Program-made: the position numbers and the translations under genes
IMG/VR virus record: IMGVR_UViG_3300045988_159706
DNA length: 64,000 nucleotides
Strand: one strand, 5' to 3'
DNA from: a virus
In this document: positions 32,128 to 53,599 of the stretch, piece by piece
Position numbering within the stretch: position 1 is the stretch's first letter
Layout of the letters: each line of letters starts with the position of its first letter
Notes under the pieces: model-generated
Told to the model about the DNA's origin: nothing
The model's input: only the letters and a program-made list of their open reading frames with translations
The model's database searches: none

Positions 32128-35100
32128 TTAGCAACTTTTTATAATTAATAATCCCCTAGTTAATGCCACATTCAGCTTTCTTTCAGATGTTAATTGTTTA
32201 GCTGCACCTCTATTTAAAGCTTTGAATCGTTCATTATTTAGCGGGAATACATTTTGAGGTTTTGCTGTTGGCCCTTCATCAAAATCTTCTATATAAGAAT
32301 CGTCCATAAATTCATCATCATAGTTTGATTTTCTAACTTGATAAAGTGTTTCAAAATCAGTAGCTAAGGTTTTATCTAACACAAAGTTACGATCATAAGT
32401 ATCACCTATAAAATTGAAATATGAATTAATTAATGTATTATTCTTAATTACCTCAGTAAATAATTTACTAAAACTATCTCCTAGGATTTGATTTTTATTT
32501 ACAATTAAATTATATAAAAACATATAATCTGCAACTGTATTATTAGGCCAATTATCATCATTTATATTCACAAAGGTCTCTCCAAGATCCTGAGATGTTA
32601 CTATATCGTTTGCTATAAGATTAAAGTCTATAAGCATTTTCTCATAATAATCTTGATTGGTTTTTTCAATTAAATTAAACATAGGTTTATAATATCTTAC
32701 AAAACCATCACCAGATGCGCTGTATTTTCTATCTGCAATAAGATTATTTAAGAAAAAATTTGTTGGATATTTTAATCTCAAGCTTGGAATTAATGTTTCA
32801 TTTACAAAGATAACAAAATTTTTCAAACCTATTGGGCTATTAATAGAACGTAAAATTACATCATTTAAAGGATGTGTTTCTCCCATTCTATCTACTTCCA
32901 CATTTGAAGGATATTTAAAATCCAAGGATTTTATAGCTTGCACAATCATATCATCCGTCGCTATACTTCTCAATCTACTTGAAAGGGTACTTTTTGGAAT
33001 AACTAATTGTTTATTAGTCATTAGTTTAGTTCTATTCATTTGCTCAATAATAGCTCTATATTTTCCAGATAAATTACCAATAGCTTTTTCTGCATTAATT
33101 GATAAAAAGTCCATTTCATAAAAATGAGGAGAAGTTTTTAATACATCAAGAACATTTATTGTGGTAGCACACTGTTGAAAAATTTTAATCATATCCTTTG
33201 CATATGATTCGTTAGAAAAGAATTTCAACTTATCAAATATAAATCTTCTTCCGATTATATATTTTCTAACAGTTGGATTACCTCCAAATATTTGATCCTC
33301 TCTAATTTTAGCATTTATTATCCGTTCAATTCCTTGCTCGAAGTTAATACGCTTTGCAACAATAGCTCCAAACTCTGTAGATAATCCCTGATTGACTGAA
33401 AGCTCCCTAGCTAATAATGTTAATTCTCCAGCTCCTTTAAATACTTCTTGATAAAATAATAACTTTTGGTAGGCTTCACTCTTTTTATCTGTAACCTTTA
33501 GTAGTTGATCAATTGCTGTAGTAATACTTACGGAGTCAATATTTTCAAACATATTACCTTTTACCATACTAATAATATTAGTCATAATATCATCAGTAAA
33601 AATCTTAACAATATCATTTAAGTCTGCACCAGTCATAATCATTCAGATAATACCTGGAGCAGTTTCTGAAGTACAGTTAATATTATTAAGAATTGGGTTT
33701 TTAGCATTATCGGTTGCCTGAGATAGTAAACTTGATAAAGTAATTGCTACTGTTCCTGAGTTTGTAAAAAATTCAGAATGGGTTGTACTAAATTCCTTGT
33801 TAATTCCAGGTCATATAATAGTCTTACCGATACGTCTGGCGTTTCCACTACTTATCCAATACTCAATTGCATATTCAGCTTTAATCGCAGATGCTACTAT
33901 ACCAATCACTTCTTTACCCACCTTATTATTACTATTCATCTTTATTTGACTTGTAGAAACAAAAGGAGAGAAATTATCACTTGATTTTGGCGATACTGCT
34001 GCAGCCTTTTCAATAGGTTCTACTGTTGTAGGTAATGTAGCATATCCTATAGTTGAGATATTATGATAGGTATTAAACATATTATTCACCAGATTATTCA
34101 TAAAAACTTTGTCCAAAGTTCTTTTAGGAATTCTGTGTGAGTTATGTCTATTTATTTGAGTTGCCAATTGTCCTCCTAAAGCTTGTAATGCTGCCACTGT
34201 ATAAGTATCCCAAATATATACATCATTAAAAAGATCATTTGAAGATTTTGATTGAACTGGGAACTTAGAAATGTCAATAACAATGTTTTTATTTCTTACT
34301 TTAGCTATTAACCTTCTTAGTCTTGGAGAATTTACTGTTAACTTATCTTCTGCTATATATGCTTCTAATAAATCACTAGTTAAATCAACAAAGTCAGTTA
34401 CTTTATTTGTTCAGCCATTAGGATTATTATCTCCCTCTGCTCCATAATATGGGGTATTCCCAGTATATTGAGCTACAAATACTCCTCTGTTTTCTCCATA
34501 AATTATTTCTGGATCTGGAAGTGGCAACTTTTTCGAAGTTTCTAAATCATTATAGTCCCAGAATAAGGACCACGCTGGGTATACCCCGTCATCAGTTAGC
34601 GCTACACCAAGGTTGTTATTTTTATCCACATCATAATCAGAACCTTGCTCATAAGTTTGATATTTATTTACTAGGCTCACGTTATATGGACTTTGAAATA
34701 TATCTACAATTTCACAAGGCATTGCAAACTGCTCACTTTGCGCTGGAATACGAGCTACAATATATTTTAAGGTTTCCCAAAAAGAATTATACTGTTTATT
34801 AGCTAAATCATTAATAAACTCTTCATTAACTTTAAAGATTTTATTTCTTTTCATTAGCTTATTAACCTCTGGGTTAACATTACCATCATAGCCAGAATAA
34901 AGGCCAGATTGCAAAATATTATCCAAGACTTGTATTGGATTATTTTGGTCCACAATAACTGCAACTTCTGTTCCATTTACCTTGTAAAACTCTATGCCAT
35001 CAATTTTATAAAGGTCTTCACCTCTATCATTAATTCTATAGATGCCTGTATCATCTGTTGGAACTGTAATTTTAGTCTCTTCAGTTAAAAAGTTTTCAAC

Positions 35101-38100
35101 AAAATCTTTATTAAAATAAATAGGTAAATGTGCTCCAGTATTTGACTTTAACACAAACTCTGAAGGTATCATTCCGTCTGGAAATATTACCTTTCTGTTG
35201 ATTAATATGCGCTCTTTAAATCATTCTGGACCTCCTTGCCTGATTTCATCAATACTTACTCCTGCTGGAATATTTAGTACAGATGAATATTTATAAGATG
35301 TACTAATTTCTGAATTAACATAATCAGTACCTAAGATTTCTATTACAGGTAGTTGTTTTCAATCCCCTAAAGGATCATATGCAATAAAACCTCCATTTTT
35401 ATTCAAGACATCAACTCTACCTTCACTAATAGCTTTATATAGCACATTATTCATGAAGGTTCTTGTTGCTTCAGGATCTTTAACTGTATCATACTCTAAA
35501 GCATACCGCAATCCTAATGAGAAAACATTAATTTTTCTATCATAGATCTCTCCATCTTCTCCTTGAATACGAACATTCACAAATACATTACGTCCTTTTA
35601 AATTTCTTGGCTTAACATAGCATTTAGTAACAGTATATAATCCTTCCTGAATTCTTAAGTACTCTTCATATGAATTTAACTCCACAGGGATGGGAACAGA
35701 ACTTGAGATTCCTTCTAAATTATGATACACTCCATCTGCTCCTTTTAGGTAATAAATATTTCCAAATTCTAGAGCCAATGGATCTACAACTTCTTTGTTG
35801 TCAATTTCCTGCAAATGTGTTAAAATTTCTGGTCTTGTAATTAAATCAAGACTATTATATTTTCTCCCAGACTCGTCTTCAAAGATCATAAGAATATCAT
35901 AAGAAGGAACCATAACATCTGCAGAACCAGCATATTTACGTTTGATAAATCCATTAGTATAAATAACTACATCGGATGCAATCTTTCCCATTAAGTTTTC
36001 ATCACTAAATGGAATTGCAATCCCAAGATCATCTAAACTAACTCCAGGATTAGCTTGAATCTTTTCATTAATCTGCTCCATTAATGCTTGAGCTAACCCA
36101 AGAACGTCCACATTATCCTTTAAGAAGGTCTTTACTAAACCTTTTCCAAAAATATCTACAAGTTTACTACGATTATCTATATTATTTACAAATTGCGCAG
36201 ATGTAGATTTGATAAGATTAGCTAAAGAGGTATAAATTTCCTTAGTGATATTCTGTACTAAACCTTTCTGAGCCATAAAGGAAATTAGCTGGGTAGGTTC
36301 ACTAACTTCAGCATCATCAACTGCGTGATCAGCATCAAGCTGGACAGCAGTATTGGAAATATCTAATCCTATAACATGTAATGGTAAAGATTTACCCCTA
36401 AATACACTATTACTTGTAATAGGTAACTGAGCTGATTTATTTGTAGATTCTGTTGGAAAATAATGAATCATTTTCTTCTTTAGAAATTGATCTACATCAG
36501 ATTGGGATAATACAGAACCATCCACACTAGTTTTCACACCAATAGAATTTAACAGATTTAGAACTTGATGTTGAGAAGCTTCTGAGTAAACAAAGGTATC
36601 TCCTCCATATTCATCAGTAACAATTTCCCCAGAAAACTCTGCACCTAATAAGTTATAAACATCCCATAGATTGCTTAATACAACTGGTATATCTATTGTA
36701 GTTGTACCTTCGGCGAGATTTTCTAAATTATAAGTATAATTGTTATCTCCTTGTCATTTTAAGTTAGACACTTTAAATACTTGTAATCCCTTTCCTGGCT
36801 CATTAATTTGATAATATCCCATAATATTTGTTCTCTTACCATTAAAATTTTTGGTAATATCAAACCAACGTCCCCCATAAAAGAAATCAGCTAGAGTATA
36901 AGACTGTCTAAGCATTTCCTTTAACTTAAATCTTCCATGAATATTTTTTAATAGAAATGCATTAGAAATACCAAATGTTGCAGATTTATTTAAAGTGGCG
37001 ACCCCCTTACCTTCAATCATAGAGTGTCCTAATGTTTTTCTAACAATACCTTCTACTTTATAGTCAACTGTAGAATTATCAGATAATCATAAAGTAGTAA
37101 TAGGTGCAAATACAGCTCCATCCCATACATTCATTTCTTGCCCTGCAGATTTATTTAAATCCGCTACTGGGGAGTTGTAATCACTAATTGTTGCATAATT
37201 GGCCGTATTTGGCAAACCTGTTAGAATTCCTCTTTGGTATGCATGTCCTGTTGCACTTAAAGCAACCATACGTTTAGTTGAAGTAACATAAGACTGTTCG
37301 GTATTTTTTGTAAAATCATCAACAGTTAATTCTCCTATTGGTTTACTATATACAGCTAGATTTTTATACTTATGTGCAATAGTACTTCCTACAGTTAGCA
37401 AAATATAATTATAGGATAATAGAGCGTGTGTATAAAAATATTTTTTAACATCATCCTGAGTCATTCCAAATCTATTCTTGAATGCTTCCATGATGTCACC
37501 TGTTCTAAAAATTTCTCTACAGTCTTTTAAAAATAAATTATACTCATTTTCAAAGAAAGAATCTGAGTTTGAAAAAGCTAAATAATATCCATATAGTAGT
37601 CTATTAAACTTAATACCAGAACCTTTAACTTTTTTATAATCAAATTCATTAGAAATTACATAGTTAGTATAATTTTTTGCATTATATTCATCAACTAAAT
37701 TGTTTAAATCATCTTCAGTTACTCCTTTCAATGCAAAATCAATATTGTTTATTCTATCTATATAATTATCAGAAGGAGTTATCTTAAGAATCCTTTCAAA
37801 CAAACTTAAAGAATTCTCTAAGTATTTTGTTTGAATTTCTAGACCTCCAGTTCTAAAGAAATCTGCAATCTCTTTTCAAGAAGCTTGTGCAATACTTTTA
37901 TTCCTACCTTCTCCTAACCCTTCAATAGCTTTAGTAGTATCAAATACTTGATACATAATAGATTTCTTATCAGAAGGAGTAATTCCCTCAATAAGAATCT
38001 CTCCATTATCCTTCATAGATCTATTATAATCCCAACCAATTGCAACTTGCAACTGTTCAGCATCAGTAAAATCCTCTGCTAATCTAAATTTCTTCTTAAT

Positions 38101-39786
38101 TTTAGAAAAAGCATCTAGATGAAGTCGACTTTCTTTATATAAAGTTGGGTTTTTATATAAGAAAGATAGCATTAATGGTGATTCAGAACCAGTTGGGGAA
38201 TTTTCTATTCTATTTTGCAGATTTGCTAAATGTTGATAGAATGTATTGGATAAATTAGCTAAACGATAATTAGGAACTTTATTTCCATCACTTCGGGAAG
38301 TAATACTTTTTATAACCTCAGGATTCTTATCCAGATAATATTTAGCTAAAGCCACTAAATTTGCATCATCTCCATTAATTTTGGCCCCTGTAGTTATTCT
38401 AGTAATTAAAGTAATAATGTCGTTTAATGGTAGATCCTGATTTTTAAATTGAAGAAAATCAAATCCTGTTAAATTTTTAAAATGATATAAAAGGGCTTCT
38501 GTTGTTAATTTTCCAATATCCTGTGGAAGTAATTTTTTACCATTTACTTTTGGAATGCCTTGTTTACTTATAACATAGTCAATGTTATTGGCCATTTGTA
38601 AAGAGACAACACCTTTATTTAGTACATCAGTGCTTGTCGTTCTATTTTCGTCCCAATTATATCTTTGATACGTTTGTTTAACATACTTTAGCATTCCTGC
38701 TAACATTGTATCAAGATAATTTATGCCATCAGATTTGATTATTTTAGAAAAGGATTTTTTATAGGCTTCCACTAAATTAATACTAACCTTTCCACTCTCT
38801 GCCCCAGTTGAATCAAAATATCTAGTTCTTATACTATAAAGAATTTTATCAACATTAGAGTTGATAGTTTCTAATGAATCTGTATAACTAATAATTTCAT
38901 CAACCAATAATCTGGGATTTTCAATAATTTTTCTAAATCTAGTTCAATCACTCCTGGCAATATTATTTAATAGAGTATTAGAAGCCTCATAAAACATTGC
39001 CGCTGTCAGATTCTTTTTAGTTTGTCTGGCAGTTCTTCTTCCATTTTTTGATTGAAATACATCATATAAAGGAGTGCTTTCTATAAGTAATTTTAAAGAG
39101 CCTGAGGTATCATCATATGCAGATCTATCATCTTTTCTTTCTCATCCTGCGACATGATGGTGTCCATCATTAATCTCAAAATTTTCTTCAGTATAATTGT
39201 ACCTAATATAATGATTACTAATTTCAGGGATTAATTCTCTATTATGTAATAACAGAATATACTGATAGTACTCCCTTTTATCAATATTATTTAAATTCTC
39301 TTTAAATGCATCATTAATCCTATTACCATACGTTGCAAAGGTATCCCCAAAGGTATCACTTAAATCACATAAGAGTACTTCTAATGATTTTTGTAATTTT
39401 TCTTTACTATCAATTACTTCATACTCTCCAGTAGCATCATTAAAAATATTTAAGATTAATGAATCACCTACTCTTCTTGCAGCATACTGCATAAAGTCTC
39501 TATATGAAGTAAAATCAAATTGAATTTTTCCATCAGGTGTATTATATGTAAAGTATCCCTTTATAGTTTTATTAATACTTCCTGCATCAACTAGATTTTT
39601 TAAACAATATCTTTTTACATGTTCGGACAATGCTTGTACGAAATCTGGTTCTACACTCATGCCATTCTCAGACAGCTGAGTTAATAATTTAGAATAGATA
39701 TCTGAGTCGTTAAAAAACGACCCAGATGTATCTATATCTAAACTTTTTGCAACGTCAACGATTATTGATTTAATTGTGCAATCCAT
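32128..39786 (-). CDS. giant protein (about 2552 aa), candidate virion RNA polymerase (DxDxD motif)
   Basis: ATG 39786. Eight track ORFs from 39142-39786 down to 32128-33642 are all in one frame. All seven gaps were translated and contain no TAA or TAG. TAA at 32128-32130. YEQGSDYDVDKNN (DYDVD at 34624-34638) resembles the Asp triad described for the crAss-like virion RNAP. Confidence 0.8.
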
Positions 39787-39789
39787 AAA

Positions 39790-42700
39790 TTAACATTCTT
39801 CTCCTGCAGTTAATATATCTAAAAGTTCTTTAACACTACTTACTAATTGGTATTTGTTTTTCATCTTTTCAAAGATTGCAACATTTTTTCCATTATTCAT
39901 GTAAGCATCCAGTTTTTCTGCAACATCCCTACTAAAAGTAAACGATTTTACTTGATTTCCAAGTTGAAGTTTATATGTTACAGGATTTCCTGATTCTATA
40001 TTTTGTCGTGTTACAAAGATACCATTATTTTCCTGTCTTACAAAATGAACAAACGAATGAACATAATCATTATATTCATCTAATAAATCCATACACTCTT
40101 CAGTAAGGATATCCTCTTCTGGGTTAGATGGTTCCATTACTAAATTTTCTGCAGTATTATTAACCTGTTCCTTTACAGTTTCTACTGCCTCTTGTATTGG
40201 TTCAACTTTGGCTTCTTCAGTAACTTCTGTAAATACTGAGTTTAATCCTTGTTCATAGTCATAATATGACATTACGGACCATCCTCTTTCATATACAAAA
40301 TTATTATCTGCAGTATAATTTAAATTAGTAGGAACATTATTAGTTCTATAAGTTTTATCAAAATCTGTTTGATGATAATTGGCAAAGATCTTAGAATACA
40401 ATTTGAACATTGGCTCTGTATTTATACCCTCCAATAAACTTACAAAACCATCATAATCAGAATATATAGATTTATAAATATCCCAAACTTGATTAACTCT
40501 TAACTCAGTAATAGGGTCATTTCCTGCAAAGATTATTTCTGCAGATTTATCCTCATTTGAAAAATCTACTCTATTCGCAATATCTTGTAAATCTGAAATT
40601 GCAAGCTTAGAAATTCACTCTGGAAGAGGTTTTCCAGACTGTTTTAAAGCTATTAATCTTTGAGTCCATGCAGCAATATTTTTATAGAGCTTATTATGGG
40701 ATTCCTTCGTTCCTATAATTCTAACATCCTCTTTGAATTTATCCTCCCAGTCAGCAGTTGGAGCATAGTTATAATATAGCTGAATTGGTTGTACAGAGAT
40801 TCTAATTCGAGCTTTTCTTATAAATTGTTCCATAATAGCAGGAGACCATTCAGAATACTTTTTCATGTCTCTCACTAATTCTGTTAAAATTCTATAAGTT
40901 TGCTTTAAATCATTTATATATTGATTTATAGAATTATCCAAGGAGACTGCCTTATCGGTATAATTAGACCGCAGTTTAGCAAAAATAGTTACAGCACTTG
41001 CTGTAATCTTTGATACTTCTCTAACCTTTTCATTTCTCTGCTTAAAAGGATTTCCTTCAGAAGTATGAGAATCTCATATATCAGAAGCTACTTTGTACAA
41101 AGCATCTATTTCTGTATATAATTCAGAAATAGAATATTCTCCTCTTTTATCAGTTAATCATTCATCATTAACTCTAATAGGTTTAGTAGATTCAAAGAAT
41201 GAGTATTCAAAATCTGGTGTCCCAGAGCTATAACGATAAGGAGTTCAATACCTTTGATTATCAAATTCCTTATTCATTGGATCAAAGAAAATAGGTGAGT
41301 CTGGAGTGTAAAAATTAAGCTTTTCTGAATCAAATCTATAGTAAGTTGTTTGATTCTGTTTTGCATCCAATTCTTGAATTGCATCCAGTAATTTAGTATC
41401 TCCAGCAACATTTATGCCTTTACCTACTGTTTCTGCATTAGGAAAGATTGCCAAAGTTACTTCCTTATCCCCATCTTTATAAACTAATCTTCTAAAGATT
41501 TTAGCTTTAGATAAATCTTTATTTGGATCAAAATTACCTACTCCCCAAGCATTATCAATACTAGAATCATAAGGAGATACTTTTATTAAAAATTCTCCTG
41601 TATCTTCTACACCGTAAAGATTATAATTTTCTGCTCCAGTTAACTTTAAATATAAATTATTTCTCAAGGCATTTAATTGAGTGGCTGCTATTTTGAAGGC
41701 CTCACTTCGAATATCGGCATCCTCAGTTAAAAATAAATTTATATCCTCAGTATCATTGCCTCTATGATATACTTGTTCTGAATCAACCATTCCTCCTAAA
41801 CGATTAAAGAACGTATGTACTCTAAGCATAGATCTGATTAATGGGACTTCATTAACAGTTAACTGTTTTGTTGGTGCTATATCTTCATTTGGAGCTTCTG
41901 TTGGATTCTCAGTAGCGATATTTAATTCAGGAATTGATAATTTGCTTAGGCTTTCTTTTCTATATTCCTGATAAGTTTTAATAGACTCTTCGTTTATACC
42001 TATACTATAGACATCTTTCCACTCTTTTTGGGTTGTGGTAAATACAGATTGCTTTGAGCTCTTTAATAATCCATGAATTATAGTGGCATTTTTACCTCTA
42101 GTTAAAATTGTATAAACATCCTTTCTACTTGGAATCCCTAAAGGTCCATCCTGGAAATTTAAGTCTCCATTGATTAAGACATAATCAAACTCTTGACCCT
42201 GTACTGCTACTACTTCTGTTTTTAATACAACATTTTTTGGAGGAATTAACCCATTCTTCTTTATGTCATATAAAAGAATTGTACTGTCAGGATGAGCCTT
42301 TGCAAACTCATTTAATGCTTCTTGAGTTAATACTCCAGCATTATTCTTAATGCCAACAACATCAGACTCATTTTCTGCATATTGAAGTTCAAATGTAGTA
42401 CTGTCTAAGTTATATGGGAATTTAATTAATCTTCCTGAGTTCCACTTTCCAATGTTTGTAGTAACTCTTTTAGATTCATATAGACTACTGCCAATAAAAG
42501 TTAGACATCGATCAAAAGAGTCTAGCTCTCCTTTTTCATTACTATATCCAGATTGTAAAATGTCTCCAGTAGTGACAATTTTAAAATTAAGTTGTTTGGC
42601 TAATTCATCCAATAGTAGATACTGTTCACGAGATACATAGGTTCCCTCATCAATAATAATTGTTAAAAAATTATTTTGGAGTATTCCTCTTAAATCATCT

Positions 42701-45700
42701 GATACAGCTAGTCCGTAATCCTTACTATTAAACTTAACTTCAGCACCTTCAATGGTTGTATATTTCTTAAAGTCCTCTATAGTATAGTTAATTTGCTCTT
42801 GAGCATTATTATCTATAATTTTAACGCCATCTTCAAATAACTTGAACAAATTAGCTATTGTATATTTACTTGCTCTATCTGCATTTAGTTTTTCTAAGTT
42901 TGCCTCAGTAGGAGCAGAAAATAAATATTGAGAATTTTCTATTTTATTTTGAACTAATTGAATTAGTGGAAGTATAGCAACTGATTTACCAACTCCAGAA
43001 CCCGCACAGAACCTAAACATATTCTCTAATACAGAATAAGATTGTGAATCCTTTGCTTTCTGCTGAACAACAGAAATAATTCTGCGAATTTCTACCTTAT
43101 CTCCATTAAGATATTGAATAGCTTGTTTTACTAGAAACTCCTGAGAATAATAAGGGGCCTTTTCAAATTGTCCCTCTTCAATAACTTCTTTGTAAGGCTT
43201 GTAAAAAGTTGCAGGCTCGCTAATTAAGTTTGACATTAAATACCAGAAGTTTAATGCATCCATTGTATGAATATGATCAACATTCTGTTCTTTATTTAAA
43301 CTTAAGTAAGCAGGTTCAGCAGAAAACTCAGGGAATAAATCACACAGTAAACCTATGAACGTATCCTTTTGTTCTGGAGTTAATCCTCTATAATAAGTAA
43401 TTAAAGCAGCTTCATTATTAATTAGTGCCTGTTCAAATTTAATATCAGCTTCACTAATTGCATCCTTATCTAAATCATCAAGAACAATGTTATCTATGAA
43501 TTCAAAGGTAGGTAGTTCTGGTAAAGAATTCTTTGTAAATATAGAATCCTTCTCATTTAATTGTTTATAAATATCAATCCTATCTTGTTTAATACTAACA
43601 CTTAATTTTTGCTCTTTGATATTTTCGTTGTTGGCGTTAGCATCACTAATAGCCTCAAGCCCTGCAATTTGAGATTGAACTAAACTGATTCTATTAGTTA
43701 GAGCTCGTTTAACTTTGTCACTAATAATTGGAAGTTCAAAAACTGGATTTTTATGACTTTTATTAAAATCATTAATAACCTCATTAATACTGGTTAAGTT
43801 ATCAACACTTCTTGTAACTGAAGTTGCCCCTCTTAACAATGCCTCAACTTGGAATAATTGAGTATTTAGGTTATCTAGCTGCTGTCTAACTGGAGTTTCA
43901 AGAATATAAGTTTGCTTTCCACTTTCATACTTAATTAGTTCCTCATCAACTAATTTAGTGGAATTTAATCCAAGTTGTTTTAGTATATCTTCGATATTAT
44001 CATTTCCAATATCTCTATATACATTATTAACAACATTATAGACATCTTTAGCCTTTTCTAAAGCTTCCTGCCAACGTTTTACATCTGGAGCAAGATCTTG
44101 ATGTTCAGTTGCGTTAGTATCAATAAGGCCATTTATAAAGTCTGACACCATTCCAACTATTTTTGAAGATACACTTTCATTAGGATCCTCTGGAAGAAGA
44201 GAATTAACCCTTTCTTCAGTTGGCTGACCTTCATCATCAAGAATTACAACAGGATTGCCCTTTTCATCTAAATCATAAGCAGATTCTACAGCCTCTTCAA
44301 ACTCAAATACATCGAATAAATTATAACTCTCTGGAATAACATTATCTCCATTATAAACACTATAAAGATAATTAGCAAGACTTTTAATAATAGGGAGATT
44401 ATTTCTTAGAGAAGAATGTCCCACTAAGCCATGGATAATTCCAACTAACTCATTATAGGACATAAATCCATTATTCCTATCTTTATAAATAAGCCTTCCA
44501 GATGAGGGATCCATTTCTAATTTATCTGCTAAATTTGCAAGCTTTTCATCAAGAATTTCCCCCTCTCTATTTTTAAGATTATCTGCTATTAATTCAGACA
44601 TCCTTCTATATAATTGGTATGAAGTGAATGAATCTATTTCTGACTGTTTAGATTCGACGTAATTAGCATATTTTTCGTCGACATAAGCTTTAAGAGTATC
44701 ATTTAACTTAGAATAGTCATAATTAAATACCTGTTTAGCATAGTTTTCTACATTAGGTGAATAAAAAAGCCCAAACACACTTGGAGTATAAGACGCCATC
44801 ATTCTTCCAAAGTAGATTTCATTTCCTCCGCTTACTAGTTGATGAATTTGATCTTTATAATAATCAAATTGAGCTTGCGCTGCTTTTATAATTTGAGGAT
44901 CCGTTTTTTCATCCTTTTGTAATCTGAATAACTCCGAGGAAACATCATTCAATTGTAATTGAAGTTTTGTCAGATCATCTGCCATTAGATCAAGAAGCTT
45001 TCCATCATCCCCCGCCTGCTGAGAAATTTGTAATGCAGTTAAACTTCTATAAATTGGCACATTAGCTAAATCATCTTTAGAATATTTAATACCCTCTTGT
45101 TCCAAGAATAGATCTAACGTATTTATGTGATTTATAAAGGAATCTATTAAATACGAATTTTGTGTCTTTGACTTATCCGAAGCTGGGAGATATGAACCGT
45201 CTTCTGCTCTTTCATCATATGATAATGTATTACTTCCTAGAGCCTTTCCTTTAAAAGATTGTGCTATTTTTATTATTTCATCTTTCTGACCAGCATTAAC
45301 TTTTTGAAGAATTGCCCTTGCCATTTCTGGACGTTTTGATAGAGCTGAGCTTCAGTCTGCACTTCCACCTCTAGTTCTCCACCAATTTTCTAATCCAAAA
45401 ACAGTACCACCAATACCACCACCAATAAAACTAACTAAATATCGCTGAATAGGATCAGAGGCGGCATAATCAAAGTGACCTTGAGTTTCATAGCCCAGTT
45501 CCTTTCTAATAGCATTTAATCCATTACCAAGAACTCCTTGAGCAAAGTCTGTCATTAGTTCTTCCATAACTTCTTCAGTTGCTTCAGATACAGTACTGGT
45601 TAAAATTCCCCTTCTTCCACCATATACAACTGAGGTTCAAAGATCATTTATAGTTTTTGTGAAAGATTTAAACTTTCCTACAAAACCTCCTTTTACTCCT

Positions 45701-47262
45701 GCCTGAGTAAGTTCAGTCTTACCTCTATCTTTAAGATAGTTGTAGACTAGCTCTCTCAGTGCCATCCTTTCTTCATTTAGATCAACTCCAGTTAATAAGT
45801 AATGTTTAAAGTAATCAAACTGAAACAAAGTATGGAACCCAGTATATACAGCAGTTGAAATTACAGAAGCAGTTTGTCTATCAAACCCGTTTTGAATTGC
45901 GTCTCCATAAGTTTGGGCGGCTGCAGTAGTTACTAAGTAAGCTCTTGCAATTGCAGTACTAGCTTTTTGATATTTATTATAAGCATCATAAGCAGCTTTA
46001 TATTCAGGCATGGATTCAATAATAGTTTTTACTTTAGCAGGAATCTGCCCTTTTTTAAGCATTTCTTTAGTAAAAACCAGTTCCCCTTTTGAAATAAGCC
46101 CTTTTTCAACAGCTTTGTCAAGAACAGTTCCTTGTAGAGCTGCAACACCTGCTTCTAATCTTCTATCCATTCCTAGCATTTTAGGAATATTTGCAACTCA
46201 TCGTTGCTGGAATAGCTGTTGTGCAGAAGTAGAAGCAAATTGACATATGTTATCAAAGGAGAAAGAATGTACTTGGTTATATTCAGAAGGGGTACTATTA
46301 AATTTTTGCATAAACCCTTCAAATTTATTTAAAGCAGAAGAAGGGCGATATTCTGAATCTAATAATCCTCCAAATGTTTTAATAAGAGCAGGCATAGATT
46401 CACTTAAGTACATGGCTGCAGTCATTCCCGCTCAGTACTCTCCTACTCCAGGAATTAAATAAGGGGCCATTACAGCCAATGTTCTTGCTACTGACCTAAC
46501 TGGATTAACCTCTATGCTATCAGTATCAAAAATATCTACTTTATTCCATACACTTCCATCTGTTGTTAATACATCCAGAACACCTAGAACTTGCTTTCCA
46601 TAATATTCCCTTCCATTTAAAGTTTCATAATAAAACTTTCCATCAGAATCATATTTGTAATCACCTTTTGAATGCTTAACAATGTTTCCATCAATATCTG
46701 TATGCTCTCCATCCTCATCTCATTGGGCTAATACTAAAGTATCACTAGTCAAAACTCCTAATGCACCAAGATCATTTGGGGTTTTATCCGACCAAGTTCC
46801 ACTTTCAGTATCAAAGTATTTATTTTTTTGTGCAAGTTCTGCAATACTTAAAGCTCTTGGTCCCTCAGTTCCCTCATGGAAATATGAAGTAGTTTCAAAA
46901 GGATTGGATACCTTTTTAATTTCAAAAGTAGGCCCCTTTTTGATATTACTTTTGGCATCTCTGTTTATGTCAAAAGCATCATATTCATAACTATCTTTTA
47001 ACCACTTTTCTGTGTCTAAAGTTGAAAAACTAGTATAATCCTGTAGTGCTTTTGCATAAAATTGATCAAATAAAGCTTCATTAAATTTTCCACTATCATC
47101 TTTGAAAAACTCTTTTACCTTATCGGATTGAAGATAGTCCTCTTTTGGACGAATACTTGTATTTAAAGAGTTTATACCGTCTGCTGCTAATTTGTCAATT
47201 GTAACATCTGTATTTAACAGATTTATAGCAACCCAATCATTTTGTTTAATGTTATTATCCAT
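39790..47262 (-). CDS. giant protein (about 2490 aa) with an embedded SF1 helicase-like P-loop core
   Basis: ATG 47262. Seven track ORFs from 46720-47262 down to 39790-40434 are all in one frame. All gaps were translated and contain no TAA or TAG. TAA at 39790-39792. Motifs GSGVGKS, IIIDEGTY, TTGDILQSG and YTILTRGKNATII. Confidence 0.8.
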
Positions 47263-47267
47263 ACTTT

Positions 47268-49142
47268 TTATAAATCTCCAAATGAGGTTTGTAGCTTAGT
47301 TTGCCTTGGATTATATGCCCCATTATTATATCGTGGATCAACATAAGCTTCCTGCATCATTTGATACTCCGAACCAGTTCTTTTATCAGTTCTAGCTCGT
47401 TCATCAGATACTGCTTGAGAGGCTTGATTAACATATAAAGGAATAAATACAGTTCCGCTTAAAATTCCTCTATTCCAAATCCAACCATAATTAATCTTAA
47501 CCTTATTTTTCTTTTCTCTGCCTTGATTAGCATAATTTACATCATTCATAAACTTATCCCTACCTTGACCTGTAAGCCTATCAATAGTAGGGTTATCAGA
47601 TGAATATCCTGCAACTGCTCCTTCATCTTCTGACATTTTAGCATGTACAGCAAGGAATCGTCCAGTCATTAAATTTCCATCTTGATCTAGATTATTATCC
47701 AGAGCATATTTCTTATAAATTTCAAAAATTTCTCTAGGATCAGTTACTTTATTTTTGGCTATTTCATCAACTGCCATTTGGTAACGATTTATAGCTCCAA
47801 AATCAGGCTTTCCATTATAGTCAACTGGAACATCTATAGTTTCGACACCATCAGAAGCATCAACTAAGACTTCTCTAGCTTTGTTAGGATCTATATATAA
47901 AGTATCTTGACTATCTCCAACAACACTTCCATTAGTTCCCTTTGCATTATACATACCTCCAAAGTATAATTTATCTCTATCCATAGCTACTCCATTTTTC
48001 GCAAGGTCATTAAAGACCTCATCTAATGTAGCTATACCAGTTACTATTTCATTATCTTTATCTCTTAGAGGATTGTGCTTAACTTCTACTATAAAATCTG
48101 CAATTCCATCCCGAGTTCTAACTCTACGAGTTCTACTAGCACCAAAGCCACTAATAAGACTTTGTCCATAACCTTCTTTATCTCCTGGACCTGAACCTTC
48201 TCCTGAACCACTTTTACTACCTTTTCCTAGTGGATCTTTAACATATCCTACTTTTCTTGAAGTGTCTGTATGTTCAAATAGTGCAGCTTTTAGAATACTT
48301 GTAACATCTTCCATACTCTCTGGGTTTAGCCCCTCAGCAGCTGTAGTTGCACGTAATACATGTTTAGCATTATTATTTAAATTCTTATAAAGGTATATAA
48401 TAGCTGCATTTATATCCTGAGCAGCTTTTGAATCTGAACCCTCTATTTCATAAAGTCCATCAGGACCTAAACTCATCAACGCTTCTAACCCCCTTTGAAC
48501 TTGGCCTCCAGCTTTAATGGTATAACCTTTTTGGGAAGTGGTTCCAAATTTCTTAATAGTACCTATTACTTGGTCCATAATAGTTTTCATTCCTATTGAA
48601 TTTGATAAATCATGTAGGATAGATTCATCAAATTTTAAATTAGGATCTCTTTCCCTTAGATGTATTAGTTCTGCGTTAGTTAAAACTTGATATTCTTCTG
48701 GATTCTTACTATAATCTGTTGGAGTTACCTTTTTTACTGATTCCCCATCATATACATATAAATTTCCATCATTGGAAATAGCAACATCAGAACCAGTATT
48801 TTCTACTTTAATTCTATCTGTTGCATTTTTATATAGTGCATTATTATGTTGTAATCTATTTGCTAATGATCTGAGTCTGATTAATTGACTCATTGTATTT
48901 GTCTTTTTTCCAGAGAAGATATTAGTTGAATCTTGCAAGAAAGATTGTGCTTGGCTTAGAAAATAATCAACATCAGTAGGAATTCCATTCTCTTCTAATA
49001 CTTTAATGATCTCTTGTTCTATTAGTTTATCGTCTTTCTTTTCAGAAGAAGGAGAAGTCGCAGGTTCTCCCTGCGACTGTCCCATTACTTCTCTTGAAAT
49101 TGGAGTATATGAAGCTCCATATTGATATTTTTGAATTTTCAT
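47268..49142 (-). CDS. virion-module protein (624 aa)
   Basis: Uninterrupted ORF. Its ATG overlaps the upstream TAA by 1 nt. TAA stop. No TGA. Function unknown. Confidence 0.75.
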   Translation of the reverse strand: MKIQKYQYGASYTPISREVMGQSQGEPATSPSSEKKDDKLIEQEIIKVLEENGIPTDVDYFLSQAQSFLQDSTNIFSGKKTNTMSQLIRLRSLANRLQHNNALYKNATDRIKVENTGSDVAISNDGNLYVYDGESVKKVTPTDYSKNPEEYQVLTNAELIHLRERDPNLKFDESILHDLSNSIGMKTIMDQVIGTIKKFGTTSQKGYTIKAGGQVQRGLEALMSLGPDGLYEIEGSDSKAAQDINAAIIYLYKNLNNNAKHVLRATTAAEGLNPESMEDVTSILKAALFEHTDTSRKVGYVKDPLGKGSKSGSGEGSGPGDKEGYGQSLISGFGASRTRRVRTRDGIADFIVEVKHNPLRDKDNEIVTGIATLDEVFNDLAKNGVAMDRDKLYFGGMYNAKGTNGSVVGDSQDTLYIDPNKAREVLVDASDGVETIDVPVDYNGKPDFGAINRYQMAVDEIAKNKVTDPREIFEIYKKYALDNNLDQDGNLMTGRFLAVHAKMSEDEGAVAGYSSDNPTIDRLTGQGRDKFMNDVNYANQGREKKNKVKINYGWIWNRGILSGTVFIPLYVNQASQAVSDERARTDKRTGSEYQMMQEAYVDPRYNNGAYNPRQTKLQTSFGDL

Positions 49143-52100
49143 TACGAAAGCATTTTTAATAATAACTTTATTAAATTATCATCCATTTTCTGAACAGCTT
49201 TTCTATAATCCTTTGCTTTATCTAAGATTGTCTGCTCATCAAAATCACGATATCGCTGAGTTTTAGTTATAGTTCCTCCTTTTTTCTTAATTACAGGAAT
49301 TGTTCTATAAAAAGAAGGATTTCTATAGTAATTTCCTATTGTACTTTGAGGCATGTCAATAGTTCTACGTCTTCCAGTGAATCTACTACGACTATTCAAA
49401 TAACTATTTAACTGAGATCTCATCATTATGTCATTTTGAAGATTTTGAATAGAGCCAGAGTAATAGTTCTCTAAGAATTTTTGACGTCCTGCCTCAGAGT
49501 CACCATAATCAGACTTCCAGTTTGGATTGGTAAGTTGCTCATTCTCCCAAGCCTTTTGAGCTTCTGCAGAATTAAATAACTCTAAATACGTTTTTTGAGC
49601 ATTCTGCTGTAAAGCAATGTTATCCCTAACTGTAGCAGCCAATTGTTCATCCTGCTGGTCTCTTACTAAATCCATTCTCTTTTGATCAATGAAAGGATTT
49701 ATAATCTGGTTCCAAGCTGTAAATTGTTTAGCTGCTTTGTTTTGAGCTAACATATTTTCCATTTGGCCAAGAACTGCCTTATTGTAATCTGCTATTTGAG
49801 TACGTTGATTAGCATATTCTCTTCTTGCAGCAAGGTCCTTATCATTAAATTCACTAATAGTTTGAGATAATCTAGTATCCCTTTCATTAGCCAATTGATC
49901 AGCTTGTTGATCTCTCATAAGTCTTTCAGCCATTACCTGATTAGGATCGCTTGTGACAGTTTTAAACTGACGAATATCCTTTATTCTATCTCCATACATA
50001 CGAGCAATTCCCATATCTGTATATGGAGCATAAAGTTCTGTAGGCATAGATTTTAATTGACCTTGAGCTGCAGCTCTGATTCCTCTTGCTAATTCACGTC
50101 TTTGACGAGCATTTGAAATTAATCCTCCTGCTAATGAACCTAAATCTAATAAATTTTTAGGATTAAACGAAAAGCCTCTTCCATCAGAAGCACTTCCAGT
50201 AGAAACTACGTTATTAGATGCAGTGTTATTAGAAGATTCATGCTTTGATACCTCCTCTTTAAGACTGGAGGTACTAATATTTCTATATGGATTTTTTAAA
50301 TCTAAATAGGCATTTTCTCTCTGAGTCCTATTATACTGAACATTAAGAGGGACTTGATTTTCTATTGGCTTGAACTGATTCCTTCCTAAGAAAAGTTGAG
50401 GAGATGAAGAAGCTTTAAACATCGTTTTTGGATCAATTCCTGTTATTTTCTCTGCCATTAATCTCTGTCTTGCCTCTTTTTGTGCTTGCCATGGTGTGAT
50501 TACTCCTGTTTCCCATGCTGATACTATAACAGGCTCTGCATCAAAAGAACCATAAACCCCTTGATTATCCATAGATTTACCAAAGAATTTTGATCCACCT
50601 TGAGCTTTAAGAATTTTGCCCCCTTTTTTATATAAACTCTGAGGTCTATAAACCATTCCTCCATCATTAGGTAATTGTACTCAAGAACCTGCAGTTTTTG
50701 GTAACATTAATCTAGGTTTGGCGGTGCGAATTTTAATAGGCTTAGCTGGAATAGGATTAGGAAACCAGTAGGGATTAAAGTAAGCTTGATCTCCATTAAT
50801 AAGTTCTCCTGTAGTTCTATAACCTCTTTCAAAGATATTAAGACCCCTAACACTAGGAGCATCAAATTCTTTTCTAAAATCAGCTCTATTTTCTAATCTT
50901 TCAACTACATTTCCAAATTCTCTATTTTGAGCTCCTCTCATCCAACTACGACCAAATCTGTTTTGTAAGAACCAAGGAAGTTCATCTTCAGTTCTGGCTC
51001 TTAATTCTTTTCTATCCCCCGTTAATCTATCAGTAATAGAAGAGTTTAGATTCTTTGTTGCCGTCTTAATCTTAGACAGTCCTTCCTGATAAAGCTTGTT
51101 CTTTGGTAGATTAGATAGTACATCAGCATCCTTTAAAGCATCTTCATAATTAATATTACCAGTTTTTGCATCATACCAAGCCTTTCCCTTAAATTGACCT
51201 GGATTTTGTGAAACAGCATCATTTAATGCTCTTTTTTGAATATCTATTAATTTTTCAGGAGTGGCTTTTCCAGAAATATCTGCTGTTCTTCCAGTTTTCT
51301 TATATCCTACTGTTCTATCTAAAGCTCTCTTTCCACCTATTAATCCTTGAACTCCCATTAATATATTTCTATAATCATCAAGAGTCCATTCTCCTTCTTT
51401 ATTAATAGAATTTAGAGCTGCTGATAGACCTAAAGCAGAGAATCCTGCTGTTAGTAGTGGTTTAATTCGTTTAATTATCCTAGCGGTTTTAGCTGCTTTT
51501 CCAGCTATTCCAACACCTGGTAGGAATGAAACAACATCTAGTCCAAGCCCCAAAGCTGCATTTCCTAAATCACCTAAATCAAAACCATCTCTTTTAACAT
51601 CAGAAATAAACTGAGTTGCAGTAGAGCCTACTCCCAAAGCTGCTGCTACAGGATTTCCTCCAGTTGGTATAGCAGCTACTAGTGCTCCTAAATCAGCTGC
51701 TAATGCTCCAAGTTGTCATTTATCAGCAGCAGTTAAATCTCCACTTTTTATTTGAGATGTAGTCGCAGCCTTTTTTTCATCACGAGTCTCTACCTTTGGG
51801 GTTGTTTTCTCAGTATCCTTAGAAATCCAATTAATTAATCCTCCAGTTTGTTGTTTTGGAACTTGACGATTGTAATGAATGGCTGGAACTCTTTTCCCAG
51901 CGTATTCATCATTAAAAAATCCTGTATTCAACCATCTGCTAAATCTAGACCATTCTCTATGCTTAATAGCATTTATTTCATCCGCACTTAAATAATTATC
52001 ATTAAGTAGAGATTTGAATCAGTTTCTATTAAATGGATGTAATTTCTTACTTTCAGTATCATAAAAGAATCCTTGATTCTCATCCTCTGGATTATACGCA

Positions 52101-53599
52101 AAACTATATCTTCCAGAAGGATCAAAATCATCCCAAATATAACCACCTAAAATTTTATCTGTTGGATCAATTCTTGAATAAAAAGCATTCCCTGTAGCTT
52201 CTCCATTATATCCTGCAGCCCTAATATATTTAGAAATATCAACAACATTCCCATTCTCATCTAACCCTATAGAAGAGATAGAAGTAGGTACTCCGAACTC
52301 ATTTCTAGGAGTATTATTATCAATAATATCCATTACTGTAACTCCTTGAGGAAGATTCTCATATAAAGGTGATGTGTAAGTATATAATACATTATCATCA
52401 TTTTTATATGTTTTATTGAAGTAGGGATTATATTGAAGTTGTGAATTATATCTCTTAAAAGGATTATTCGTTCACAATACTTGCCACTGTCCATTCTTAA
52501 CAGGATCAAATAAATTTTGACGCATCTTATTAAAAATGTCAACATTCGGAGAATTTAAAATTTGATTAATTTCTGATTCTGGATTAGCTCACTCATTTTT
52601 ACTATATAACCTGCCATTATAAAGGATATAGTCTTTGAATCTTTTTAATTCTGGGTGAATATTAACAAAGTTTTCTCCGAAATATGCATTTCTTCAATCC
52701 TTTCCGTAACCTTCTAGTCCAAATCCTTCAGTTAATAGTTCTCCTTTTGGCCCATAGGAAATTTTAAATTGATTTCTAAAATCAGTAGTAAAGTTATTAT
52801 CTTTATCCCATTTATCCTGATTTGACTGAGCACCGCCTTCTTCAGAGGTTTTTGAAGTATTAGTTTTATCAAGAATACCTAATTTAGATAATGTATTAAT
52901 ATCACTATCTGTAATACTTCCATCTTTAATTCTCTGATATAAACCATCCCAATCTGTGTATTCTTTAACGAACCTTGAATACACATCTTTAGTTTGATTA
53001 TTATACCCTTTCCAGTCTACAATATTTTCCTCTTTTTCAAGATTTCTTAAAAAGTCTAATCTATCAAAAATGCTTGTATTATCAGTGTCAGTATTATATA
53101 TTCTTCTCCCGTTATCATCAAGTACTAAGTTTCCATCCTTATCTCTTTTATATGAAAGAAATAATTTTCTAGAAACATCGACACTTTTATTTTTATTCGC
53201 TTGTGGAGTAACTTGGTTATAATTAAACCCACGTAAAGCGTTTGTTGCACTTTTAACTTGATTTACTCTTCCATTAAAAGTACTATCTAATGCTTCTCCA
53301 GTTTTTGAGGTACGTCTTGCAGCACGTCTTCTTTGGCGGGCATTCATGTTGTCAAACGTTACATCTCCTCTTAACTCGTTAGTATTAGAATCATATGATA
53401 AATCGGCACCAGATCTAAGAGCATTAACAATAGCTCCATAATCAGCTCTAGCTCTATCATCTGTGATTGAACTACCGTGTGCCGCCATAGCCTGTAGAAA
53501 GTCGTCGTCAACTTGATATGTCACACCATCCTTAGTAAAGTTGCCGTATTTTTTTACAGCTCCTCCACCCTGGAGTTTTTGTATATTTACCTGTGCCAT
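49142..53599 (-). CDS. large virion-module protein (about 1485 aa) with glycine-zipper/hydrophobic and Q-rich coiled-coil segments
   Basis: ATG 53599. Track ORFs 52694-53599, 52019-52333, 51716-51931, 50681-51637 and 49142-50656 are all in one frame. Gaps were translated and are open apart from TGA. TAA at 49142-49144. Confidence 0.7.

Follow-up and report, generated by a model that had tools for sequence, protein, structure and literature searches.

The 64-kb stretch of DNA analysed here (the window) belongs to the genome of an uncultured gut phage, one of the large crAss-like phages of the "Zeta" type, in which stop codons are recoded. It carries a conserved late operon in the order muzzle, DUF192, two cargo-like genes, a helicase-bearing giant and a DFDxD-type virion RNA polymerase, and this order is repeated in five divergent genomes. 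The region has been named the "transcription gene block" (Yutin 2021). The genes of the block discussed below are as follows:

58199..63010, minus strand: crassvirus muzzle protein, 1603 aa (Pfam crAss_MUZ 90.3 bits, gathering score 27; phrog_15100)
49142..53599, minus strand: 1485-aa gene with a Gly/Ala-rich hydrophobic centre, by synteny at the position of crAss001 cargo protein C1 (gp45)
47268..49142, minus strand: 624-aa gene upstream of the giant, by synteny at the position of crAss001 cargo protein C2 (gp46)
47262..39790, minus strand: giant gene, 2490 aa under TGA=Trp (ATG 47262, TAA 39790-39792)
32128..39786, minus strand: crass-type virion RNA polymerase homologue, 2552 aa, ending in Cys and starting 3 nt after the stop of the giant
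34624-34638, minus strand: catalytic motif DYDVD within the polymerase gene
25924..30744, minus strand: last gene of the block, 1606 aa, with a weak PD-(D/E)XK nuclease signature at aa 193-375 (PDDEXK_1 18.3 bits, below gathering score)

The muzzle protein anchors the block as one of the crass tail/cargo type, and the giant, placed in a virion module by the original prediction, does sit in the crassvirus muzzle/cargo/RNAP block. Family searches with the 1485-aa and the 624-aa genes gave no match. The intergenic gaps around the giant are 5 nt upstream (from the neighbour's stop to the ATG) and 3 nt downstream. The adjoining downstream gene, proposed earlier as an RNAP candidate, is by its sequence a homologue of virion-type RNA polymerases; the motif QGSD[FY]DID is kept in 11 of 13 homologues, 12 of which have a Cys at the very end. 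In relatives the polymerase ORFs are split within GSDY|D.D, and an ORF break inside this motif has been described for the Zeta group (Yutin 2021).

The full 2490-aa gene is real only if TGA is read as Trp. Under translation table 4 a single ORF spans the gene, with nine in-frame TGA codons (first base, plus-strand coordinates: 46720, 46432, 46198, 45637, 45352, 41245, 41158, 41074, and 40615), and a protein of 2490 aa identical to the giant is already on record (P0001). Table 11 gives only a 1359-aa ORF at 41245-45324 that includes the helicase module. On one rival reading the gene model is an artefact: TGA would be a genuine stop, and the helicase a protein of its own, 1359 aa long. The 64-kb window, searched for a suppressor tRNA, yielded none. 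However, the nine TGA codons share one frame, and at the five that are checkable W, Y or F rank among the most frequent residues of the aligned columns in relatives. In a TAG-recoded relative the full-length architecture recurs and the gene has no TGA at all, and reading TGA as sense joins ORFs throughout the whole window. The artefact is already contradicted by these data.

The giant consists of three parts: a helical N-terminal module of ~900 aa, an SF1 helicase core and a variable C-terminal region of ~700 aa. The features of the helicase core and of the two flanking parts are:

44563..47262, minus strand: N-terminal family-defining module, aa 1-900, in 120/120 homologues
41893..43245, minus strand: SF1 helicase module as modelled, aa 1340-1790 (AF2, Foldseek, profile vs PDB)
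43141..43143, minus strand: candidate Q-motif, Gln1374 (APYYSQE), 49 residues upstream of Walker A, invariant in the alignment
42982..43008, minus strand: motif I / Walker A, CAGSGVGKS, aa 1419-1427 (G1423, G1425, K1426, S1427)
42637..42663, minus strand: motif II / Walker B, TIIIDEGTY, aa 1534-1542 (D1538, E1539)
42547..42579, minus strand: motif III, IVTTGDILQSG, aa 1562-1572 (D1567, Q1570)
42172..42210, minus strand: motif V, VAVQGQEFDYVLI, aa 1685-1697 (G1689, E1691)
42070..42117, minus strand: motif VI, VYTILTRGKNATIIHG, aa 1716-1731 (T1718, R1722)
39793..39795, minus strand: C-terminal cysteine codon TGT, last residue C2490, a family-wide signature

A complete SF1 motif set had been claimed for this protein, and the five motifs are indeed found in the predicted order in a single minus-strand reading frame. 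Together they cover 313 residues (about 310 had been estimated), and the earlier positions of Walker A (42982-43002), Walker B (42641-42664) and motif VI (42061-42120) were a few bases off. The role of Gln1374 as a Q-motif is a candidate one, suggested by the alignment. Conservation was examined in 277 relatives, most pairs of which are <50% identical. Two G and the K of Walker A, its T/S, the DE of Walker B, the Q of motif III and the R of motifs IV and VI are each kept in 277/277, and the D of motif III in 275/277. The Walker residues in relatives had been named as a check, and their retention throughout does not count against a helicase. An inactive relic is excluded because the catalytic residues are invariant in the 277 relatives; we give this reading and the artefact together hardly any credence. 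The helicase is thus catalytically intact by its residues, every one of them kept, and is under strong selection. Among close relatives only one other region of the giant is more conserved than the helicase core, and the module is constant across about 490 clusters of proteins of 2.4-3.6 kaa.

Profile and structure comparisons, with matches well outside what chance would give, identify aa ~1340-1790 as a genuine SF1 helicase/translocase core of the Upf1/RecD (SF1B-like) kind. Profile searches had also been suggested as a check: Pfam AAA_19 scores 29.6 bits for the domain and 25.1 bits for the whole giant (gathering score 25.1), and among 38 diverse family members AAA_19 is found in 34, AAA_30 in 32 and Viral_helicase1 in 20. 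Against the PDB, the family profile matches Upf1 (E 3e-13, both RecA domains) and RecD (E 1.4e-9), and further IGHMBP2, Sen1 and nsp13. The AlphaFold (AF2) model of aa 1340-1790 (pLDDT 89.4, pTM 0.88) comprises N-terminal helices, a RecA-like domain 1A with a beta-rich insertion, and a RecA-like domain 2A with an insertion; its top Foldseek matches in the PDB are exclusively SF1 helicases (probability 1.0). The giant shares with SF1B helicases (Upf1-like, RecD/Dda/Pif1-like) all of motifs I, Ia, II, III, IV, V and VI and two RecA-like domains with insertions, and these helicases are its best profile and fold matches. It differs in that the module sits at residue ~1400 of a 2.5-3.5 kaa protein, has an additional helix between the candidate Q-motif and Walker A, and is only 10-15% identical to any solved helicase (TM-scores 0.33-0.36).

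The phage also encodes a separate helicase:

7252..8700, plus strand: standalone SF1B helicase (Dda/RecD/Pif1-like), 482 aa (AAA_30 65 bits, UvrD_C_2 38 bits)

Since this gene lies in the replication block, the phage already owns a replication helicase, and the helicase of the giant, to judge from sequence comparison, is not simply that enzyme. The two are only distant kin (hhalign probability 94%, domain 1A only).

The original prediction spoke of flanks of more than 1000 residues around the motifs; this holds for the N-terminal side (1418 aa) and not for the C-terminal one (759 aa). It also mentioned glycine-rich hydrophobic segments near the N-terminus. A conserved glycine-rich segment, FIGGGIGGTVFG, does occur at aa 612-623, and no hydrophobic stretch is flagged there; in the whole giant only the Walker A strand is flagged (Kyte-Doolittle, 19-residue window, threshold 1.2). 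The N-terminal module is modelled as mainly alpha-helical, apart from a short beta region at aa 176-214 (AF2 pLDDT 78.9, pTM 0.56). Within it lie an invariant acidic helix (E560, E563, E564, E567, E568, D572) and the motif Y608/G614 G615/G618 G619/F622, and its model gave no fold match against the PDB. The C-terminal Cys is present in 95% of 253 family members, against a chance expectation of about 0.9%.

We infer packaging and ejection of the giant only from gene position and synteny and from the shared C-terminal Cys, since the crassvirus giants verified by mass spectrometry have no helicase and no detectable homology to it. In crAss001, gp45, gp46, gp47, gp49 and gp50 are virion proteins by mass spectrometry (PMC10172136), and phi14:2 virions contain the polymerase together with the giants on either side of it. 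The "RNA-polymerase-associated" cargo giants crAss001 gp47, phi14:2 gp078 (gp67 in the Yutin numbering) and crAss002 gp32 occupy the same gene position as the helicase giant, following the muzzle and cargo genes and directly ahead of or beside the DFDxD polymerase gene. Like it, they are late-operon products of similar size (1800-2350 aa), extremely Cys-poor, with a Cys at the C-terminus, and predicted to be mostly helical beyond enzymatic modules; in these three cargo giants the C-terminal Cys is the sole one. In contrast to it, their virion location is measured, they carry no P-loop helicase, and neither the N-terminal module nor the helicase of the giant has sequence or profile similarity detectable in them; crAss001 gp47 instead has PD-(D/E)XK-like and HExxH motifs, spotted by eye.

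This want of homology to verified cargo would suit a giant that is made late and stays unpackaged, as an intracellular transcription/RNA-processing or recombination factor; for example, it could resemble Sen1, Upf1 or HelD and serve in termination by the phage polymerase, in recycling of that polymerase or in clearing R-loops. Upf1, Sen1, nsp13 and RNAP-bound HelD are among the best fold and profile matches, and the "transcription gene block" label (Yutin 2021) agrees with such a role. We nevertheless regard it as unlikely: all tested products of the equivalent block in cultured crassviruses are virion proteins, the giant shares their C-terminal Cys signature, and a mere 3-5 nt separate its gene from the cargo-like genes on one side and from the virion polymerase gene on the other.

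The nuclease signature in the last gene raises another reading, in which the giant and that 1606-aa protein form a RecBCD/AddAB/Dna2-like helicase-nuclease machine. Once ejected, it would break down host DNA or process the ends of the phage genome. The fold and profile matches of the giant include Dna2 and RecD, PDDEXK domains recur in giants of the crass transcription block (Yutin 2021), and crAss001 gp47 has the PD-(D/E)XK-like motif mentioned above. Yet the PDDEXK_1 score is under the gathering score, the nuclease is a separate protein two genes away, and no helicase-nuclease fusion is seen within the family, which makes this machine quite improbable.

The best explanation, which we hold tentatively and at a little short of even confidence, is that the giant is a co-ejected SF1 motor, which opens incoming DNA or translocates it for a virion polymerase in need of single strands. 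The giant is a late product of the tightly packed operon that also encodes the muzzle, the cargo-like proteins and the virion RNA polymerase. It would be packaged in the capsid alongside the polymerase and would leave it before the DNA or together with it. After refolding in the host cytoplasm it would use ATP to move along the phage DNA as this enters and to unwind it, and the resulting single-stranded template would let the crass-type virion polymerase start early transcription; it may additionally help to reel the genome in. We likewise infer the nucleic-acid substrate of the helicase, its polarity and its coupling to the polymerase. The phi14:2 polymerase gp66 works well on single-stranded or denatured DNA and poorly on a double-stranded template, and promoter exposure for N4 vRNAP depends on host gyrase. 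Crass-type polymerases are not in general need of such a helicase, because cultured crassviruses manage without one. It also counts against the co-ejected motor that a folded two-RecA-domain protein would have to unfold for tail passage and then refold, that its presumed equivalence to verified cargo giants is drawn from position and the C-terminal Cys, and that Upf1, Sen1 and nsp13, its best sequence matches, are RNA or RNA/DNA helicases, so that its substrate could be RNA.

Operon context and the Cys signature fit equally well an ejected counter-defence or DNA-entry protein that acts independently of the virion polymerase, where the helicase would travel along the incoming DNA and shield it from restriction, strip host proteins or be a pure import motor. 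Helicase modules in giants delivered with DNA are established: P1 DarB combines a methyltransferase with an SF2 helicase, and some polyvalent proteins have UvrD-like SF1 helicases (Iyer et al. 2017, PMC5512222). The N-terminal module shows a weak, non-significant Foldseek resemblance to polyvalent and tape-measure-like proteins. However, methyltransferase, Zincin, ART, MuF and LPD domains were searched for in the giant and none was detected, so the polyvalent signature is absent; its helicase is SF1 and not SWI2/SNF2; and a role of this sort gives no reason why the gene lies strictly next to the polymerase gene in five genomes. It therefore seems rather unlikely.

Among known systems, P1 DarB and the polyvalent proteins of phages and conjugative elements resemble the giant as large multidomain proteins that enter the cell with DNA, many with an ATP-dependent helicase or translocase working on it. 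They differ in that their motor is of the SWI2/SNF2-type SF2 fused to an adenine methyltransferase, SF1 being rare there, UvrD-like and in actinomycete plasmids, and in the signature domains missing from the giant. N4 vRNAP with host gyrase/SSB, phi14:2 gp66, and Neurospora QDE-1 (to which the crass polymerase is structurally related) with QDE-3 helicase/RPA are alike in pairing an ssDNA-preferring polymerase with a separate DNA-opening activity. In N4, however, a host enzyme does the opening, QDE-3 belongs to the RecQ (SF2) helicases, and the literature examined on these three systems describes no phage-encoded co-delivered helicase. Poxvirus virions package the helicases/ATPases NPH-I, NPH-II and A18 with the viral RNA polymerase for early transcription, and thus hold helicases together with the virus's own polymerase; in contrast, these are separate small SF2 proteins of a eukaryotic virus that act inside the viral core and are not ejected via a tail. 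Given DarB and the polyvalent proteins (PMC5512222), the original view that a helicase in an ejected giant has no place in known descriptions was overstated. Both the poxvirus helicases and the automatic UniProt names of the giant's homologues ("RecD-like protein" or "Helicase") also speak against it.

The 2490-aa protein encoded between 47262 and 39790 on the minus strand (hereafter the helicase giant) carries an SF1 helicase module at residues 1340–1790. Its P-loop NTPase domain has Walker A (AGSGVGKS) and Walker B (IIDE), and motifs Ia, III (GDxxQ), IV (Arg), V (QGxE), and VI (YTxxxR) are present in canonical SF1 order. The original prediction had listed five motifs in this order, and they are indeed found so over 313 residues, within a few bases of where it had put them. 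It had also treated degraded Walker residues in relatives as evidence against a helicase; G-x-GK[T/S], DE, the Gln of motif III, and the Args of motifs IV and VI are kept in 277 of 277 relatives. In an alignment of the module from 38 diverse relatives (17–48% identity to the window protein), the invariant residues are Q1374; G1423, G1425, and K1426 of Walker A; D1538 and E1539 of Walker B; D1567 and Q1570 of motif III; R1599 of motif IV; G1689 of motif V; and T1718 and R1722 of motif VI. Because the catalytic residues are invariant in the 277 relatives, the reading of the module as an inactive relic is rejected.

Profile and fold searches lead to the same family of enzymes. The curated Pfam profile AAA_19 matches at 25.1 bits for the whole giant, which equals the gathering score, and at 29.6 bits for the excised domain; AAA_30, UvrD_C_2, ResIII, and DEAD match under their gathering scores. 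Among the 38 aligned relatives, AAA_19 matches 34 and AAA_30 matches 32. When the alignment profile was searched against PDB sequences, Upf1/NAM7 came first (E 3e-13, covering both RecA domains), then RecD (1.4e-9), followed by GajB, IGHMBP2, Sen1, and coronavirus nsp13; phmmer with the whole giant as a query against PDB returned nothing. AlphaFold2 applied to the alignment (aa 1340–1790) predicts two tandem RecA-like domains with a pLDDT of 89.4 and a pTM of 0.88, with β-rich insertions between motifs Ia and II and inside domain 2A. Foldseek matches of this model in PDB are almost exclusively SF1 helicases (DSH9, Upf1, alphavirus nsP2 helicase, GajB, nsp13, RecD, Dna2, RecD2, and Dda) at probability 1.0 and modest TM-scores of 0.33–0.36. 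The module may belong to the SF1B subgroup (Upf1-like and RecD-like, 5'-to-3'): SF1B enzymes top both the profile and the fold matches, with UvrD-like GajB and HelD scoring too and the TM-scores only in this low range. There can be hardly any doubt that the helicase is real, and it is highly probable that it is active.

The extent of the gene depends on the genetic code. Under the standard code the module lies in a 1359-aa ORF (41245–45324, minus strand). Coding-looking sequence runs past in-frame stops at both ends of this ORF, and every such stop is TGA. When TGA is read as sense, ORFs fuse throughout the window and those of at least 150 codons increase from 15,476 to 21,932 codons in total. 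The giant then runs from an ATG at 47262 to a TAA at 39790–39792, with 9 TGA and 17 TGG codons, and is identical to a 2490-aa protein already on record. Five TGA codons of the N-terminal module could be compared with relatives, whose commonest residues in those alignment columns include W, Y, or F. Relatives in the family use TGA or TAG reassignment, TAG being the recoded stop in one of the related genomes (L006). A stand-alone 1359-aa gene is rejected on the basis of the ORF merging, the TAG-recoded full-length relative, and the W/Y/F columns at TGA. Sense TGA occurs on both strands of the window, early and replication genes included, for example ribonucleotide reductase (3790–6033) and PolA (16491–18482). 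No tRNA genes, suppressor or other, were found in the 64 kb window.

The helicase giant belongs to a large family: a word-indexed search yields 589 relatives, the best 120 of which are almost all 2400–3500 aa long. The N-terminal ~900 aa are common to all of the best 120 and the helicase module to 119, and the final ~700 aa are variable among them. When 1.84 billion cluster representatives were searched exhaustively with a profile, 493 clusters were retrieved at E ≤ 1e-30, nearly all of them proteins of 2.4–3.6 kaa with the module at about residues 1350–2100. The lineage that carries the giant is abundant, with 5534 sequences in a single 90%-identity cluster. The source records name the family only as "hypothetical protein". 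BFVD lists UniProt homologues from metagenome-assembled viruses as "RecD-like protein [Siphoviridae sp. gcode 4]" and "Helicase [Podoviridae sp.]", so automatic annotation has already caught the helicase domain; fragments also appear there under "CrAss-like virus sp." With the giant and a relative as queries, tblastn against INPHARED found only MT835470 and MT835492, both unannotated human-faecal scaffolds. The giant and its three large neighbours have no match in PHROGs.

In close relatives the helicase core is second in conservation, behind the N-terminal module. The latter has a largely helical predicted structure (pLDDT 78.9). It has no fold match in PDB at E < 0.3, and in BFVD it matches family members and, weakly and non-significantly, tape-measure or polyvalent-like proteins. 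The most sharply conserved feature of the family outside the helicase lies in this module (aa 555–625, window ~45390–45600). It consists of an invariant acidic helix (E560, E563, E564, E567, E568, and D572) followed by Y-x5-GG-xx-GG-xx-F, with invariant Y608, GG 614–615, GG 618–619, and F622. The original prediction also described hydrophobic glycine-rich segments near the N-terminus; a Kyte-Doolittle scan (19-residue window, threshold 1.2) flags the Walker A strand only, and a transmembrane reading of these segments is rejected on that account.

The phage of the window is crAss-like. Its minus-strand operon encodes, in order of transcription:

58199–63010, minus strand, 1603-aa ORF matching the Pfam crassvirus muzzle family crAss_MUZ (90 bits)
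402-aa ORF, then 391-aa ORF, minus strand
54936–55553, minus strand, DUF192 protein (65 bits), conserved in this lineage within the muzzle-to-cargo block (2839–3426 in the related genome L002 and 1682–2281 in L007)
54153–54932, minus strand, GIY-YIG homing endonuclease (phrog_314, 1e-18)
113-aa ORF, 1485-aa ORF, and 624-aa ORF, minus strand
39790–47262, minus strand, helicase giant
32128–39786, minus strand, 2552-aa ORF
30744–32123, minus strand, 459-aa ORF
1606-aa ORF, minus strand, at the end of the operon, with a weak PD-(D/E)XK match

The gene of the giant lies 5 nt from its upstream and 3 nt from its downstream neighbour. The same gene order is found in four further divergent genomes (L001, which is MT835470, L002, L006, and L007); no GIY-YIG ORF was called between the DUF192 and cargo-like genes in L002 or L007. 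The gene of the giant thus lies in the block running from the muzzle to the virion polymerase, the position of cargo proteins. The Zeta group, as described in the text of Yutin et al. 2021, combines crass structural hallmarks with genomes of 145–192 kb, TGA or TAG reassignment, a polymerase gene broken inside DxDxD, and many homing endonucleases. Traits matched here are crAss_MUZ, TGA/TAG recoding, the polymerase break in relatives, and the LAGLIDADG and GIY-YIG ORFs; contigs that carry the giant or a member of its 90% cluster reach 130–178 kb, and contigs of the lineage overall 130–188 kb. The TerL, MCP, and portal genes, on which the phylogeny of the group is built, lie beyond the 64 kb of the window.

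The 2552-aa ORF directly downstream of the giant is, judged by its catalytic motif, the virion-type RNA polymerase. Its DYDVD (34624–34638) lies inside QGSD[FY]DID, a motif kept in 11 of 13 homologues that are 21–27% identical overall and one that agrees with DFDxD, the catalytic motif of crass polymerases. A phmmer search of this ORF against PDB gave nothing meaningful. The polymerase gene is unbroken in the window and in L006. In three relatives the ORF is broken exactly at GSDY|D.D (L001 20889–27734, L007 18353–24430, and L002 18033–23744), and in L002 a LAGLIDADG ORF (23866–24603) follows the break, an arrangement suggestive of an intron or intein in the polymerase active site.

Giants at this position are virion components in the cultured crassviruses crAss001 and phi14:2, the two for which there are mass-spectrometry data. 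Mass spectrometry of crAss001 virions detected gp45 (C1), gp46 (C2), gp47, gp49, and gp50 (PMC10172136), and the 2341-aa gp47 directly follows gp46. In phi14:2 the polymerase and its two flanking giants are virion proteins. The helicase giant occupies the position of crAss001 gp47, phi14:2 gp078, and crAss002 gp32. Neither hmmsearch --max with the helicase and N-terminal HMMs nor hhalign revealed significant similarity to crAss001 gp47 or gp50, phi14:2 gp076 or gp078, or crAss002 gp32, and Pfam finds no domain in the cultured cargo giants. On these comparisons the giant is therefore a lineage-specific variant at the cargo position without detectable orthology. In a homologue search with crAss001 gp47, each of the 120 matches listed is at least 90% identical, too similar to show how widely the C-terminal Cys described below occurs.

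A further likeness lies at the C-terminus. The helicase giants are poor in Cys (0.155% of their residues), yet in 240 of 253 full-length giants (95%, against ~0.9% by chance) it is found among the last six residues, and in 119 of these it is the terminal one. We first remark on this signature here, and it is not an established cargo criterion; no mention of it was found in the crassvirus literature examined. Loci with a C-terminal Cys are:

39793–39795, minus strand, helicase giant
32131–32133, minus strand, polymerase-like ORF (ends in ...IIKSC)
30744–32123, minus strand, 459-aa ORF
crAss001 gp47, whose lone Cys is third from the end
phi14:2 gp077
phi14:2 gp078, whose lone Cys is the last residue
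crAss002 gp32, whose lone Cys is the penultimate residue

The phi14:2 polymerase ends in ...QECK, and 12 of 13 polymerase homologues of the lineage, that of the window among them, have Cys as the terminal residue or within the last three. Many disulfides stabilise crAss001 virions. The shared Cys lends independent, indirect support to placing the helicase giant in the functional class of the verified cargo giants. It may serve as a signal for packaging, tethering, or processing, possibly as a general one for packaging or tethering in helicase giants, polymerase homologues, and verified cargo giants. By analogy with the cultured phages, the helicase giant is probably packaged in the virion. A rival reading takes it as an unpackaged transcription factor resembling Sen1, Upf1, or HelD, all of which score in the searches with the module; its cargo position and C-terminal Cys favour packaging.

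The window encodes a second helicase in the plus-strand block of early and replication genes, which includes:

7252–8700, plus strand, standalone SF1B helicase of 482 aa (AAA_30 65 bits, UvrD_C_2 38 bits, weak PIF1)
8701–9867, plus strand, ATP-dependent DNA ligase
12712–14091, plus strand, RNA-ligase-like protein with OB fold
14599–15498, plus strand, polynucleotide kinase-phosphatase (HAD_PNKP 155 bits)
20566–21687, plus strand, DUF2201_N metallopeptidase and VWA-like domain protein

The ligase, RNA-ligase-like, and kinase-phosphatase genes form a nucleic-acid repair set like the T4 Pnkp/Rnl tRNA-repair counter-defence. The sign of the GC skew flips at ~26 kb (window ~25700–25950), precisely where the plus-strand replication genes give way to the minus-strand cargo and structural genes. 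The two SF1 helicases of this phage look unrelated. They show only a distant relationship, restricted to domain 1A, and the module of the giant is thus rejected as a recent duplicate of the replication helicase. A separate, distantly related replication helicase argues that the module does another job.

That job may be connected with the polymerase. The phi14:2 virion polymerase, the only characterised crass polymerase, is efficient on single-stranded or denatured DNA and poor on double-stranded DNA. The helicase, strictly conserved and encoded just before the polymerase gene, is a concrete candidate for the DNA-opening or import activity that would supply template to the virion polymerase in this lineage. 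In the best-supported model, the giant would be co-packaged and co-ejected as a motor, and would open the entering DNA, or translocate it, for the virion polymerase. In N4, host gyrase is needed to expose the hairpin promoters used by vRNAP, and vRNAP is believed to draw the genome into the cell. Coupling of the helicase to the polymerase is a tentative proposal that we hold somewhat less probable than its opposite. A function in counter-defence or import like that of DarB and polyvalent proteins would also suit a giant delivered with DNA; the signature of those proteins (MTase-SF2 dyad, LPD, Zincin, ART, MuF) is absent, and the SF1 module is the only Pfam domain in the giant. Another rival pairs it with the PD-(D/E)XK giant as a helicase-nuclease; the partner would be the 1606-aa ORF of the same operon, whose nuclease match is weak.

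The original prediction could not place a helicase inside a giant virion protein among known descriptions, and in this it was overstated. One precedent is provided by poxvirus virions, in which helicases are packaged. Another is provided by DarB and polyvalent proteins, in which a helicase forms part of a giant protein delivered with DNA (PMC5512222). Multidomain giants of the crass transcription block are described in the text of Yutin et al. 2021, and neither that text nor the preprint text mentions a helicase in the block, Fig. 3 and Supplementary Fig. 13, which may depict one, being apart from it. The "SF1" gene in the legend of their Fig. 1c is, we infer, most simply the standalone helicase at 7252–8700. 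What is new is the combination: an SF1(B) module is fixed in a giant directly upstream of the virion polymerase, has spread through a crass lineage that is uncultured, abundant, and very large, and is undiscussed in the literature text examined. The helicase giant also poses the question of what substitutes for the DNA-opening or import activity in crassviruses that lack the helicase.

QDE-1, a eukaryotic structural relative of the phi14:2 polymerase, acts together with RPA and the QDE-3 helicase. A bolder proposal, which we consider unlikely, is that the giant is the first phage-encoded, virion-delivered SF1B helicase and the obligate partner of a QDE-1-like virion polymerase, co-packaged and co-ejected with it. 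The two proteins might then be tethered through the C-terminal Cys to disulfide-rich parts of the virion and be released in the reducing cytoplasm, where the helicase would melt the entering genome and the polymerase would initiate. If true, this would give prokaryotic viruses a counterpart to the QDE-3/QDE-1 pairing and to the virion helicases of poxviruses.
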